64,000 bases of DNA from Escherichia coli (GTDB taxonomy: Bacteria > Pseudomonadota > Gammaproteobacteria > Enterobacterales > Enterobacteriaceae), in the NCBI RefSeq assembly GCF_003790525.1, contig NZ_CP033635.1. One strand, written 5' to 3'. This document shows positions 113-11,003 of the stretch, piece by piece; position 1 is the first letter of the stretch, and the number at the start of each line of letters is the position of its first letter. The notes beneath the pieces are model-generated. The model had not been told where the DNA came from. It saw nothing but the letters and a program-made list of their open reading frames with translations, and made no database searches. A program made the position numbers and the translations under genes.

Positions 113-187
113 ATTTTTCTTGTTCCAGCTTGTTTCACGTTGTAGCCCTTTGTGCAACGATCGGTGTAGTTAATGGTGTAGTTAATT
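113..187. repeat. attL-like direct repeat; perfect core 162-187 CGGTGTAGTTAATGGTGTAGTTAATT, itself a tandem of GGTGTAGTTAAT
   Basis: Matches 10929-11003 at about 80% over 75 bp with an identical 26-bp core (manual alignment). Confidence 0.7.
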
Positions 188-1438
188 GTGATGACCGGAT
201 TCAAAATTATGAGCAGAGCACTTAACAAGCTGAGCGATACACAGCTAAGGAAAATCAACGGCACACCCGCCCAAAAAACAGCCTTTCTTAATGACGGTGG
301 AAACTTGAGCGTCAGGCATTCAACCAGCGGCCTTTTAACCTGGTATTTCACTTACAGGGCCGGAACGGGAAGGGGGGCATCACCGGAACGCATTAAGCTG
401 GGAAATTATCCTGATCTGAGCCTGAAATCAGCCAGGGAAAAAGCCGCCCAGTGTCGCGCATGGCTGGCTGAGGGGAAAAATCCACGTCATGAGATGAATT
501 ACACCGTACAGGAAGCGTTAAAGCCTGTAACGGTTGGCGATGCGCTCACCTACTGGCTTGAGTCGTACGCAAAGGAAAACCGTGTGGATTATGACCCACT
601 GAAAAAGCGGCTAAATAATCACGTAATACAGCACATTGGCCCTATGCCGCTGGATAAATGCGAGCTACGGCACTGGCTGGCCTGTTTTGATCGGGTGGCA
701 AAGCAAGCCCCTGTTTCCGCCGGGTTCCTGCTACAGACATGCAAACAGGCGCTTAAGTTCTGCCGGAAGCGGCGCTATGCAATCAGCAACGTTCTTGATG
801 ATATGAGTGTGGCTGACGTTGGGAAAAAACCGGATATAGGCGAACGTGTCTTAAGCACCAAAGAACTGGGCCAATTATTGCAGGCACTGGACAAAAAAAT
901 ATTTTCCCCTTACTACGTCGCACTAATCCGCCTCCTGATTGTCTTCGGATGCCGGACAGTAGAACTGAGGCTATCGGAGATCGGGGAGTGGGATTTTACC
1001 GAAATGCTCTGGACCGTTCCGAAGGAGCACAGCAAAACGAAGGTAGCCATATTCCGGCCCATACCGGAAGCGATACTGCCGTTCGTCACGCAGCTGGTGG
1101 AGCAGAACAGGCACACGGACTTATTGCTGGGGGAAGTGAAACAGGAAACCAGCGTGTCGCAGTACGGCAGATTAGTGCACAGGAGGCTTAAACACCCTCA
1201 CTGGTCACTGCATGACATCCGGCGCACCTTTACAACGATGCTGAACGATTTAGGCGTGGATCCTCACGTCGTGGAGCAGCTTACAGGCCACCAGATGCCA
1301 GGAATGCAGCGAGTTTATAATCATTCCCGTTATCTGGATGCGAAACGCAATGCGCTGGATATGTGGGTGGAGCGGTTGGAGATACTGGCGGGAGCACATG
1401 AAAACGTAACCACGCTACCAGTAGCCAGAAGAAAATAA
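188..1438 (+). CDS. int: Tyrosine-type site-specific integrase (P4-like family)
   Basis: 416-aa ORF; C-terminal catalytic-domain motifs (HDIRRTF ... HQMPGMQRVYNHSRY); GTG start directly abuts the att core. True start may be a downstream ATG. Confidence 0.85.
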   Translation: MMTGFKIMSRALNKLSDTQLRKINGTPAQKTAFLNDGGNLSVRHSTSGLLTWYFTYRAGTGRGASPERIKLGNYPDLSLKSAREKAAQCRAWLAEGKNPRHEMNYTVQEALKPVTVGDALTYWLESYAKENRVDYDPLKKRLNNHVIQHIGPMPLDKCELRHWLACFDRVAKQAPVSAGFLLQTCKQALKFCRKRRYAISNVLDDMSVADVGKKPDIGERVLSTKELGQLLQALDKKIFSPYYVALIRLLIVFGCRTVELRLSEIGEWDFTEMLWTVPKEHSKTKVAIFRPIPEAILPFVTQLVEQNRHTDLLLGEVKQETSVSQYGRLVHRRLKHPHWSLHDIRRTFTTMLNDLGVDPHVVEQLTGHQMPGMQRVYNHSRYLDAKRNALDMWVERLEILAGAHENVTTLPVARRK

Positions 1439-1812
1439 TTTTTTTCGTGTTTTTTCAGTATGCGCATACTGGATAAGTGCACAGATACAACGTGCAACAA
1501 TACACAACAACGTGAAACAACCACGAACAAGAGGTCAAAAAGTATACAGATTTATAAGTTGCTGATTTTTAATGCTCAACTGGTTTTTTATACATTAGCG
1601 AATAACGCTTTAAATAGTGAGAAAAAAGGCATAAAACGAGATTTTATGCCTTTGCATAATACTGAATTAAAATGATTTTTATTAAAATCACCCCGTTTCT
1701 GTAAAATACCCGCCACCAACATTTGCCAACTCTGAATCACCCTGACACAATCAGACACATCCCAACGCAATAGAACACGAAATAACTCTTTAAGAAACGA
1801 AAGGGGGCAATA

Positions 1813-2001
1813 GTGTTAAGCACTGATCGCTTTATACGTGAAAAAGAATGCGAAAAGCTAACAGGCCTTAGCCGCTCATGCCGCTACCGCCTGGAAAAGG
1901 CCGGACAATTCCCATCACGGCGTAAGCTGGGCGGTCGTTCCGTTGGCTGGTCTTTATCCGAAGTTCTGGCATGGAAGGAAAGCTGCGAGGCAGTTCACTA
2001 A
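1813..2001 (+). CDS. AlpA-family phage transcriptional regulator / excisionase-like protein
   Basis: 62-aa ORF with an AlpA-type HTH (LTGLSRSCRYRLEKAGQFP); sits immediately downstream of int as in P4-like and PICI elements. Confidence 0.65.
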   Translation: MLSTDRFIREKECEKLTGLSRSCRYRLEKAGQFPSRRKLGGRSVGWSLSEVLAWKESCEAVH

Positions 2002-2325
2002 AAAGACTGGCGGCACACAGCCGCCACCCATCCACTAATACAGAGATTTAACCATGAAGACTGGATATACGCCCGAACAGGGGCGGGGCTTCGTTCGGCC
2101 TGGTGAAACTGAAAAACAACAAAATCGCGGTTTTTCAGACATAAAAAAAGCGGCCCCGATAAGGAGCCGCCTTTCTGAACAATTTACCTGCCGCGCAAAA
2201 AATGAATATGAGCAGGGGAATTATATCAACCGTGTGACGAAGCGCCACTATTGCCGGATAACAGGCAAAGAAAAGGCCACCTGTCACGGTGGCCAATGTG
2301 ATCAGTGTGGTGGCTTGCTGGTGGG

Positions 2326-2505
2326 CTATTCCTGCTCTTTGGCCTTGCGCCGCTGGCGGCGTTTGATCTCGCCTTTTGCGGCAGTAACTAAAAAACCAGC
2401 GGTACTTTCGCCAGGTTCTTTAAGTTGCTCAATATCATCCATTACTTCATGTGGGATTCTGACAGTTGTCATTTGTGATTTTGCGTTCTTTGCACCAGTT
2501 GCCAT
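2326..2505 (-). CDS. Small ribbon-helix-helix-like DNA-binding protein (59 aa)
   Basis: C-terminal part of minus ORF 2326-2796 starting MATGAKNAKSQMTTVRIPHEVMDDIEQL; AGGAG 7 nt upstream of the ATG; followed on the minus strand by a hairpin (GGCCACC/GGTGGCC, 2273-2292) and a T-run. Confidence 0.45.
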   Translation of the reverse strand: MATGAKNAKSQMTTVRIPHEVMDDIEQLKEPGESTAGFLVTAAKGEIKRRQRRKAKEQE

Positions 2506-2692
2506 TTCTGGATCTCCTAAAAATTGGTGTATGTCAGTATACGCAAAAAAAATGATAAAAAAAGGCTTGAAGTGTATTTCACCAGTGAGTAAATTAAAAA
2601 GCAAAGGTGAAATACACCTGAAAGAGCAACGCCCCGCAGTGCTCGCAACACATGCAGGGCGTCTAACCAAACCGTTAAACGAGGTAACGATT

Positions 2693-2890
2693 ATGGCTGG
2701 AACACAGCATACCCCACGACTAGCGCACACACAAACCGCCTTTGTGTGGCGTTTTCTGGCACTGAGTGCCGGAGAATCCCAGATCATCCACGTCACCGCC
2801 TGGACGGAACGCGAAGCGCGTAACCGTTGCCCGTCCGGTTGTGTCGCTGTATTCGCCGCCCGTATTCGTCAGGGGGTGTGCCATGATTAA
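2693..2890 (+). CDS. Hypothetical small protein (65 aa)
   Basis: ATG at 2693 preceded by GAGG; lies in frame within track ORF 2054-2890; stop overlaps the next start (ATGATTAA). Confidence 0.4.
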   Translation: MAGTQHTPRLAHTQTAFVWRFLALSAGESQIIHVTAWTEREARNRCPSGCVAVFAARIRQGVCHD

Positions 2891-9630: not shown

Positions 9631-9870
9631 GACACCACCACATCAATTAACATGCTGAAAAGTAAAATAAAAATTGATTTTCACCTGTCCCATTTTACTT
9701 TTTGTGGGACATCTGACCAGTTTTTAACATTATGTTTTTAAAGAGAAAAATGATATTCGAGCTGGAGAACGATGCTGGTAGATAGTTAGTGATGAACAAA
9801 AAACAAGCAAAATCGACACCATAAAAATAAAACACATTGAATATCAATTTGTTGCAGTAGTGGTGATGAC

Positions 9871-9946
9871 GAATAAAATTTCAAAAACTAGCCGTTTTCC
9901 GCGACGCTCCCGCCCCGTGGCAGGGCACCCCACAAGGAGGACCCGC
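9871..9946 (-). repeat. Island-specific approximately 75-bp repeat, copy C (inverted)
   Basis: Reverse complement matches copy B; overlaps the ribosome-binding region of the ORF starting at 9954. Confidence 0.65.
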
Positions 9947-9953
9947 CATCACT

Positions 9954-10253
9954 ATGGAGGACATGACCATGACCGAGACCGAAGCGCTCGGGATAATCCG
10001 CAGTATTACCGGAATCAGCCAGCAGGCTGGCGAACAGGAGGCCACGCAGCCGGACAGCGTGATCGCCGAAAATTACGTGCGTGTTGTTGCTGATGTAATG
10101 CGCCGTGATGGTATTGAGCTTAACGGCGTGGATATGCGCGACATACGAATCAGAGTACTAGAGTTGCTGGCATACCGTCGACGCGTGGCGATGTATCAGG
10201 AGAGCGCGAAAAACACTTATCAGTGGAAGAAGCCGGAACGGTTGCGTACGTAA
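9954..10253 (+). CDS. Hypothetical protein (99 aa)
   Basis: Track ORF; AGGAGG just upstream. Confidence 0.45.
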   Translation: MEDMTMTETEALGIIRSITGISQQAGEQEATQPDSVIAENYVRVVADVMRRDGIELNGVDMRDIRIRVLELLAYRRRVAMYQESAKNTYQWKKPERLRT

Positions 10254-10381
10254 TACGTACGGACATCGAGACAAAGACGGTTTAACCATCCATTAAAAAT
10301 CGACGTGATTTTGTGCTTTCCGGATGACGTGGCCAACGTCATTTTTTAGCGAAAAATTCTGATTAAGGTCATTGGCTTAAT

Positions 10382-10842
10382 GGTCATAATGACCACTCCT
10401 ACAGAACAGGTAAAGCCCACCAGCCTGATAATTGCGCTGGCTGGCAAAGTGCAAAATTGCACGATGGCCTAACCCATTGATTATTTCGAAAACCTGCAAT
10501 GCAGGAAATCGGGGAAGTAAGCCTAAGCTATTGATTCTTTCGGAAACCTCAATTTGAGGAAGTCGGCGCGGTAACTCGCTGATATTCCCGATAACGCAAA
10601 ATTGCGTTGGCTGGTTGGCGAGTTGCAGATCTGCAACTCGACCATGAAACTACGGAAACTACCCGTAGTTTGGGTAGTAAGAGTAACACCCAGATTTTGG
10701 GGCTTACTCGTGATACCCAAATTTGGAGTATCGGTGGCAACCATAACGACTTTCGTTACGGTTGATGCTTTTACCCCATTGGGGGAAAGGTATTACGATA
10801 ATCATAACACCTACCGAACAGGTAAAGCCCACCAGCCTGATT
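10382..10842. repeat. Non-coding segment: 33-45-bp direct repeats (10398-10430 and 10810-10842) flanking about 380 bp holding at least 8 different short AT-centred palindromes
   Basis: Manual reading, e.g. GTGCAAAATTGCAC, CCTCAATTTGAGG, ACGCAAAATTGCGT, TTGCAGATCTGCAA; track ORFs here are short and overlapping. Confidence 0.6.
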
Positions 10843-10928
10843 GACATTTAACCGGAAAAAAAGCCAGGTAGCCCCGTTATGTGGATCCCCATATCGACAG
10901 CAACGCCCCCTTAAAATTACCCGCCTTT

Positions 10929-11003
10929 ATATTTCTTGTGCCTATTTGTTCCACGTTGTTTCATACAGTGCGCCGAACGGTGTAGTTAATGGTGTAGTTA
11001 ATT
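10929..11003. repeat. attR-like direct repeat; perfect core 10978-11003
   Basis: See attL; lies about 80 bp downstream of the phoQ stop. Confidence 0.7.

Follow-up and report, generated by a model that had tools for sequence, protein, structure and literature searches.

What has been inserted between roxA and phoQ in the Escherichia coli genome GCF_003790525.1? The DNA analysed is a 64,000-bp stretch of contig NZ_CP033635.1 (the window, to which all position numbers refer unless another sequence is named), near the left end of which some 11 kb of phage-type genes separate the two. An earlier note, made from the sequence alone, had described an "undescribed-looking", satellite-like island just downstream of phoQ, bracketed by 75-bp direct repeats. 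An integrative satellite does lie beside phoQ, with other boundaries than those proposed, and its family is a known one. With a probability that we put at about 0.85, window 35–11082 belongs to the E. coli EcCICFT073 family of phage-inducible chromosomal islands (PICIs), is of the cos type, and occupies the canonical attB of that family, immediately 3' to the phoQ stop codon. It is a real integrative phage satellite, and not P4-like, a capsid-forming PICI or a prophage remnant; it is a new mosaic member of a described family at its type locus, not a new kind of element. What the note overlooked is a classical Gram-negative PICI, together with its three cos sites.

EcCICFT073 is the prototype Gram-negative PICI (Fillol-Salom et al., 2018, ISME J, PMC6092414; 2019, Mol Cell, PMC6739421), and the island thus belongs to the best-studied Gram-negative satellite family. 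Within that family, helper-dependent induction, high-frequency transfer and helper interference have been shown only for EcCICFT073 (PMC6092414). In strain CFT073 it occupies the same roxA/phoQ site, and in a survey of 5,426 complete E. coli genomes an island-type right arm adjoins phoQ in 590 (~11%).

Boundaries, att core and arm sites

In E. coli K-12, only 75 nt separate the roxA start codon from the phoQ stop codon. The empty site reads GTATGGGCATATTTATTCATC, and the uninterrupted junction within it ...GAAGTATGGGCATATTTATTCATC...; a junction of this type is found in 4,822 of the genomes surveyed. Agreement between the window and K-12 ends on the left at 34 (…GAAGTATGGACATA) and resumes on the right at 11076 (GGACATATTTATTCATC…). 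Since the K-12 empty site matches only to 34 and from 11076, the inserted DNA is 35–11082 (11,048 bp). Both flanks carry a 7-bp direct repeat, GGACATA, at 28–34 and 11076–11082; the right copy begins 1 nt past the phoQ stop codon (11084–11086, minus strand), and in CFT073 the repeat grows to 10 bp. From these comparisons the crossover region is the 7–10-bp core GGACATA(TTT), presumably recombined by the tyrosine integrase. Excision would give an attP reading ...GATAAAAGGACATACTTTATCAATTAG... plus a restored attB, GTATGG(A/G)CATATTTATTCATC. The target is not a tRNA, as had been supposed: ARAGORN found no tRNA or tmRNA. Base composition does not set the island apart (48.4% GC, vs. 48.2% for the rest of the window).

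The attachment features are as follows:

28–34, plus strand: attL core GGACATA, the left crossover region by comparison with the K-12 empty site; the roxA-side chromosome lies to its left
35–187, plus strand: left (P') arm, with TTGTTYCACGTTGT-like motifs at 67–80, 120–133 and 130–143 and two copies of GGTGTAGTTAAT at 163–186; holds the repeat 113–187
1487–1520, minus strand: TTGTTYCACGTTGT twice, inverted, in the int–alpA intergenic region; candidate binding sites for AlpA or Int
10929–11075, plus strand: right (P) arm, with TTGTTCCACGTTGT at 10946–10959 and the doubled 12-mer at 10979–11002; holds the repeat 10929–11003
11076–11082, plus strand: attR core GGACATA, by comparison with the K-12 empty site

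The 75-nt imperfect direct repeats that had been taken as the ends of the island (113–187 and 10929–11003) do exist. They are 79% identical, have the identical stretch CGGTGTAGTTAATGGTGTAGTTAATT in common, and end in the same 26-mer, which had been read as the crossover core. In both places this 26-mer is two head-to-tail copies of the 12-mer GGTGTAGTTAAT (Tandem Repeats Finder). Both repeats are inside the element: the left one starts 79 nt from the left end, and the right one ends 79 nt from the right end. Neither 35–187 nor 10929–11075 has any counterpart in the K-12-type empty site. An Rfam scan of positions 1–12000 (E ≤ 1) gave no match, and the repeats are not a known RNA family.

The arms are shared with relatives, as judged by alignment and sequence reading against the comparison loci L002, L003, L006 and L009. 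The left arm is conserved in EcCICFT073 and in an island between abgR and smrA in E. coli CRE444, and the right arm likewise in EcCICFT073 and the CRE444 island. The latter has an integrase 86% identical to ours and the same left and right arms, 75-nt repeats included, and is flanked by a different short core, AATATCGTGA (L003 3990–4010 and 15265–15285). The outermost segments, 35–112 and 11004–11075, travel with it to the abgR/smrA locus; for relatives at other loci generally, the match to the window starts at 34–36 and stops at ~11050–11057. Because the same arms accompany a related island to another site with another core, the 75-nt repeats are, on sequence grounds, part of the mobile element and not the crossover site. 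The CRE444 island looks like a natural shift of target specificity in which the arm sites were kept.

In the reconstructed attP, the doubled 12-mer is found 100–77 nt upstream and 132–155 nt downstream of the core centre, in the same orientation; GGTGTAGTTAAT is probably an arm-type integrase site. Helper-embedded PICIs (HE-PICIs) have been reported with a comparable layout, in which a doubled motif lies 81 bp before and 132 bp after the attP centre; AlpA or the arm domain of the integrase was suggested to bind it, and it was taken to be unique to that group (PMC10111431). The motif itself differs (TGTGTATTGCA there, GGTGTAGTTAAT here). For specialists, a base-level att core and an analogous doubled 12-mer are thus now available for an EcCICFT073-type attP. 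The second motif, TTGTTYCACGTTGT, has six matches where 1.06 are expected, a number reached in none of 100 shuffles; they lie in both arms and in the int–alpA intergenic region, and are candidate AlpA or Int binding sites.

Gene content and family assignment

Proteins were classed by PHROG, NCBIfam and Pfam searches. The genes outside the capsid and packaging region, with the replication origin, are:

209–1438, plus strand: tyrosine integrase, 409 aa (phrog_1, E = 1e-72; 95% identical to that of EcCICFT073, 98.5% to that of the GF60 island)
1813–2001, plus strand: AlpA-family regulator/excisionase (phrog_2790, E = 1e-17; 100% identical to GF60 AlpA)
2326–2505, minus strand: YlcI/YnfO-like small gene, 59 aa (phrog_949, E = 3e-19; residues 98–156 of a minus-strand open reading frame (ORF); annotated in relatives)
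2693–2890, plus strand: Icd-like host cell-division inhibitor, 65 aa (NCBIfam NF033153, 64.9 bits vs. a cut-off of 25)
2883–3251, plus strand: hypothetical protein, 122 aa, overlapping its neighbours (phrog_340; 100% identical to the GF60 orthologue)
3241–3712, plus strand: frameshifted small gene (phrog_2512 over two ORFs; tblastn match in two frames; a single 151-aa ORF in GF60)
3672–3785, plus strand: 5'-truncated remnant of a 77-aa gene (only residues 41–77 of the GF60 orthologue match)
3791–4078, plus strand: DUF4222-family small protein (phrog_285; RefSeq name in orthologues)
4075–5481, plus strand: RepA-family replication helicase, AAA_25, 468 aa (Pfam PF13481, E = 6e-42; phrog_2850, E = 4e-188)
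5483–5670, plus strand: replication origin immediately 3' of rep, seven AAGTGAG iterons (one inverted) around AT-rich DNA
5728–6297, plus strand: two hypothetical genes, 5728–6051 and 6055–6297 (phrog_27268 and phrog_1231; 96–97% identical to GF60)
6294–6704, plus strand: single-stranded DNA-binding protein (phrog_44, E = 1.5e-40; TIGR00621, 57.2 bits vs. a cut-off of 53.95)
6715–6987, plus strand: PerC-family transcriptional activator (phrog_994, phrog_10396, phrog_1324; 91% identical to a RefSeq PerC-family protein)
9969–10253, plus strand: conserved 93–99-aa protein, the last island gene (phrog_1561, E = 3e-49; 73% identical to the last EcCICFT073 gene)

All assigned genes are on the plus strand except the small YlcI-like gene, and alpA is downstream of int. 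The cargo listed from the letters alone (int, an AlpA-like gene, overlapping small ORFs, a helicase-type Rep, ssb, a PerC-like gene and a protease-capsid fusion) was borne out by the family searches. The integrase start was misplaced: it had been set at a GTG at 188, abutting the left repeat, and the RefSeq start of orthologues 95–98% identical corresponds to the ATG at 209. The RepA-type helicase is 99.8% identical to the GF60 "helicase RepA family protein" and has no primase domain. The iteron origin predicted beside it is real, with seven of the 11 AAGTGAG sites of the window falling in 5483–5670; PICI origins have been placed immediately 3' of rep (PMC6092414). The truncated 77-aa gene has lost its first 40 codons, where the GF60 island has ~150 nt more. 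The last-gene protein has no Pfam match and no significant PDB match.

This content agrees with what is known of Gram-negative PICIs: an island of ~10–15 kb at a dedicated att site, with the integrase at one end; AlpA downstream of int in a rightward gene order; its own replication helicase with an iteron origin 3' of it; and no tail, lysis, portal or large-terminase gene, the packaging determinant being three cos sites. PICIs have int, pri-rep and a regulator, alpA; in Proteobacteria they often also have a capsid-morphogenesis gene, some carry terS, and portal, connector, tail and lysis genes are lacking (PMC10085698). A capsid gene occurs in 21 of 29 reference Gram-negative PICIs, and a lack of portal or terminase is common (PMC10111431). 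Of the five core components used by SatelliteFinder (de Sousa et al., 2023), namely int, a regulator, pri-rep, a capsid-morphogenesis gene and terS, the island has four and lacks terS, a set that would match "Type B" of that paper. The absence of portal, terminase, tail and lysis genes, claimed earlier, holds when every sizeable ORF is scanned against PHROG, NCBIfam and Pfam, and for terS also by tblastn (below).

The likeness to EcCICFT073 is close. Both islands have the same attB and att arms, integrases 95% identical, and the order int, alpA, YlcI/Icd-like small genes, DUF4222, rep with a downstream origin, ssb and perC, followed by a capsid module, multiple cos sites, a conserved last gene (73% identical) and a hairpin-rich non-coding tail. 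They differ in that EcCICFT073 has a primase-family Rep, where there is a RepA-type helicase here; a major capsid protein (MCP, c1499) and decoration protein (c1500), where there is an unrelated protease-capsid fusion here; and rppA (c1503) with two reported cos sites, where there are three cos sites and no rppA here. Such exchanges are usual in the family, whose members are mosaics of either a RepA helicase or a primase-family/DUF5906 replication protein, of two unrelated capsid modules (MCP plus decoration protein, or protease-MCP fusion), and of three packaging-slot genes. The left 7 kb of the island is 92–99% identical to the island at the same site in strain GF60.

Like P4-type satellites and capsid-forming PICIs (cf-PICIs), the island combines an integrase and AlpA-type regulator with a replication gene in ~11 kb. 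Its separation from both, already made in the earlier note, was upheld by the lack of their defining genes. No sid, psu, delta, epsilon or alpha primase-helicase is among the PHROG or NCBIfam hits, the Rep here being a helicase only. The portal, head-tail adaptor/connector and terminase of cf-PICIs are likewise missing, with only the protease-capsid fusion present.

cos sites, capsid gene and proposed packaging

How could an element without a terminase gene be packaged? A sequence of 82–86 nt is present three times, at 7011–7092 and 9549–9630 (plus strand) and, inverted, at 9860–9945. Aligned to the joined lambda ends, it has ~22 nt after GGGTCCT the sequence ACG/GGGCGGGAGCAT, where lambda has ACG/GGGCGGCGACCT; GGGTCCT corresponds to lambda cosQ. 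With these three cos sites, packaging could do without a terminase gene in the element. The features of this region are:

7011–7240, plus strand: cos1, with cosQ GGGTCCT, cosN GGGCGGGAGCAT (7048–7059) and a cosB-like region with two TTTTCACCTG elements
7402–7611, plus strand: 69-aa protein (phrog_4934), in stop/start overlap with the capsid gene; an orthologue is upstream of the fusion gene in the SCU-125 island
7608–9524, plus strand: ClpP-like prohead protease/major capsid fusion, 638 aa (NCBIfam NF045540, 907.6 bits vs. a cut-off of 475; Pfam CLP_protease and Phage_capsid_4)
9549–9770, plus strand: cos2, with the same cosQ and cosN (cosN 9586–9597) and a different cosB-like region; 93% identical to cos1 over 82 nt
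9642–9859, no strand: empty slot between cos2 and cos3, 218 nt of AT-rich DNA with no credible ORF and none with a family match
9785–9945, minus strand: cos3, inverted (cosN 9915–9904), with a third cosB-like region; 86% complementary to cos2

Two of the sites resemble phage cos regions at length. Over 193 nt, cos1 is 90–92% identical to phages HannyBb, Tritos and cdtI; the deposited cdtI and Tritos genomes start exactly at the position equivalent to 7048, and the two TTTTCACCTG elements are common to the phages. The identity runs to the start codon of the phage small-terminase (TerS; DUF1441) gene. Because it persists that far in cdtI and Tritos, cos1 by this comparison holds a complete phage-type cosN and cosB. 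For cos3, the match is to phages phi458 and mEp460, whose cos region has 90–91% identity to it over 164 nt. Of cos2, only the cosQ–cosN part matches phages, and its cosB matches none in the collection. The three cosB-like regions suggest compatibility with several helper lineages, and for specialists these multiple cos sites matching different lineages are a further point of value. In EcCICFT073, the cosB regions of its two cos sites are unlike that of the helpers and are recognised only through Rpp (RppA = c1503, 144 aa), which complexes with phage TerS (PMC6739421), whereas cos1 and cos3 here have a phage-like cosB.

The slot between cos2 and cos3 holds rppA in CFT073, terS in GF60 and RM11911, and a DUF1441 TerS in CRE444 and SCU-125; the island of RM11911 arranges three cos sites around its terS in the same way. 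In tblastn searches with RppA, two TerS types and DUF1441 (E ≤ 10), nothing was found in the island, and with c1501 added nothing significant in the whole window. The same arrangement occurs in none of the 5,426 genomes; the best matches break at the slot and carry terS or DUF1441. As a natural variant without Rpp or TerS, the island could show whether phage-identical cosB regions suffice for packaging.

The fusion protein is 94% identical to that of the RM11911 island and 57% identical over its full length to cdtI gp05 (652 aa); its best match among 50,697 phage records is a Stx2d phage fusion, also 57% identical. It keeps the ClpP-type motifs GVAASMAS and MIHKP, which correspond to catalytic motifs of ClpP. 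The 69-aa protein encoded just upstream has no Pfam match and does not resemble the product of the small gene that precedes the capsid gene in EcCICFT073. In cdtI, the matching cos is followed by genes for a DUF1441 TerS, the large terminase (TerL), a head-tail adaptor, a portal and the protease-capsid fusion. A PICI inside the terL gene of a prophage in strain SCU-125 (L009 2572–12530) has a capsid module and upstream cos 97% identical to those of the island, and the prophage hosting it has a DUF1441 TerS, a portal and its own protease-capsid fusion. Since the cos match, the fusion identity and the SCU-125 embedding all agree, PICIs with this fusion gene appear to be tied to cdtI/Stx-type lambdoid helpers, a link that should be of use to specialists. 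A separate observation concerns the linker between protease and capsid domains (residues ~196–227, window 8190–8290), which is ~28 aa shorter than in cdtI gp05; if it acts as a scaffold, it could affect capsid size.

The SCU-125 element is a helper-embedded PICI in the sense of PMC10111431. Besides its capsid module, HE-PICIs share with the island the co-oriented doubled attP motif at comparable distances, but the present island is chromosomal, between roxA and phoQ, rather than in a prophage late gene, and has another type of integrase. The cos-type Staphylococcus aureus pathogenicity islands (SaPIs) represented by SaPIbov5 also have no TerS of their own, a helper cos sequence and a capsid-protein homologue (Carpena et al., 2016, PMC5052747; Hawkins et al., 2021, PMC8569155). 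The two kinds of island are unrelated in lineage, host and regulation (a Stl repressor there, an AlpA activator here), and an equivalent here of the size redirection by Ccm there would be a hypothetical role of the fusion protein.

The life cycle may be sketched by analogy. As in EcCICFT073, a helper lambdoid phage would induce alpA, leading to Int-dependent excision, with the doubled 12-mers on both attP arms binding integrase and the TTGTTYCACGTTGT motifs binding AlpA or Int. The circle would be replicated by the RepA-type helicase from the downstream iteron origin, with the island's own single-stranded DNA-binding protein. Helper terminase would then recognise the island cos directly, as for SaPIbov5 (PMC5052747, PMC8569155). 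Since cos1 and cos3 copy helper cosB, helper TerS could recognise the island without Rpp or an island TerS: cos1 would serve as a copy of cosN plus cosB of cdtI/Tritos/HannyBb-like phages, and cos3 of that of mEp460/phi458-like phages. More speculatively, the fusion protein, a diverged paralogue of the helper head protein, may co-assemble with or remodel proheads as Ccm does; the gene may equally be dispensable, as is c1499 in EcCICFT073. That this island and its relatives represent a second E. coli PICI packaging strategy, distinct from Rpp, in which direct cos mimicry of at least two helper lineages is joined to capsid remodelling to satellite size, is a tentative idea, and on balance a doubtful one. 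If true, cos mimicry would make both TerS and Rpp dispensable.

Several points weigh against a functional satellite of this kind. Its induction, excision and packaging are argued by analogy with EcCICFT073. The cos–phage identity is ~90%, not 100%; every relative in the survey with the same capsid module has terS or DUF1441 in the slot, and the empty slot may mark a loss by which transfer is crippled. Relative to GF60, two small accessory genes are damaged, and the 64-kb window has no helper phage with a related capsid or extra cos sites. In EcCICFT073, neither transfer nor interference was seen to depend on the unrelated capsid gene, c1499 (PMC6739421, PMC6092414), so that any role for the fusion protein is conjecture.

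The island could, then, be a decayed copy of the same family that has lost a terS/rpp/DUF1441 cassette and acquired small-gene mutations, perhaps still able to excise but poorly packaged. The empty slot, in an arrangement without parallel in the survey, and the one frameshifted and one 5'-truncated small gene would fit such a history. Int, AlpA, Rep, SSB, PerC and the 638-aa fusion are nevertheless intact and 91–100% identical to orthologues; both att arms and all three cos sites are intact too, a full phage-type cosB in cos1 would make TerS or Rpp unnecessary, and EcCICFT073 itself has no terS (PMC6092414). Decay is accordingly rated an unlikely explanation, if one to be reckoned with. Far less probable is that the element is a cf-PICI, or what deletion has left of a lambdoid prophage formerly equipped with a full head module. 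Its complete protease-capsid fusion is homologous to lambdoid head proteins, but there is no portal, head-tail adaptor/connector, TerL, tail or lysis gene, nor room for one; portal and connectors are what set cf-PICIs apart (PMC10085698), and the ~11-kb int-alpA-rep-ssb-capsid layout recurs at several att sites.

The boundaries first proposed imply yet another history: a mobile unit at 188–10977, bounded by the 26-bp core and inserted in a chromosomal attB that contains the 75-nt sequence, or nested in an older remnant. The 26-nt identity within the 75-nt direct repeats is real and adjoins int. A tandem 12-mer pair is, however, typical of arm sites; the K-12 junction has neither 35–187 nor 10929–11075, and the flanks 35–112 and 11004–11075 move with the island to another locus. 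The empty site this model predicts (1–187 joined to 11004 onward), whose reconstruction had been offered as a check, was found in 0 of 5,426 genomes, the matches being confined to attR halves of occupied sites, and the remnant-only state, with the outer part alone, also in 0 of 5,426. These results contradict the model, which we regard as very improbable. A nested inner element bounded by the 26-mer was considered in its own right and rejected: the outer part is never alone, and the outer segments move to abgR/smrA. The EcCICFT073-type PICI bounded by GGACATA remains the reading preferred here.

The rest of the window and the right-end hairpin array

The remainder of the window (13–64 kb) was scanned only for long ORFs, related capsid genes and cos sites. 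Downstream of icd, a site that holds e14 or a lambdoid prophage in other strains, positions 19500–25000 contain short ORFs only.

Between the last island gene and the right arm is one further feature:

10417–10800, no strand: non-coding array in which short hairpins each follow an IHF-consensus-like site, as read from the sequence

The array gave no Rfam match. EcCICFT073 and GF60 carry it too; the islands of RM11911 and CRE444 do not. Because the CRE444 island has the same integrase type and arms without it, the array is not needed for integration. Parts of it are found in 1,534 of the 5,426 genomes, where the RefSeq annotation is none or "hypothetical protein". The predicted RNA fold of 10590–10800 has a free energy of -88.7 kcal/mol (z = -7.96 vs. 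shuffled versions), and the array could be an uncharacterised cis-acting element. Its units are ~50 nt long and degenerate: a minus-strand IHF-consensus-like site, WATCAANNNNTTR, is followed by a short perfect palindrome that differs from unit to unit, examples being CCTGCAaTGCAGG, CCTCAAtTTGAGG, ACGCAAaaTTGCGT and GAGTTGCAGATCTGCAACTC.

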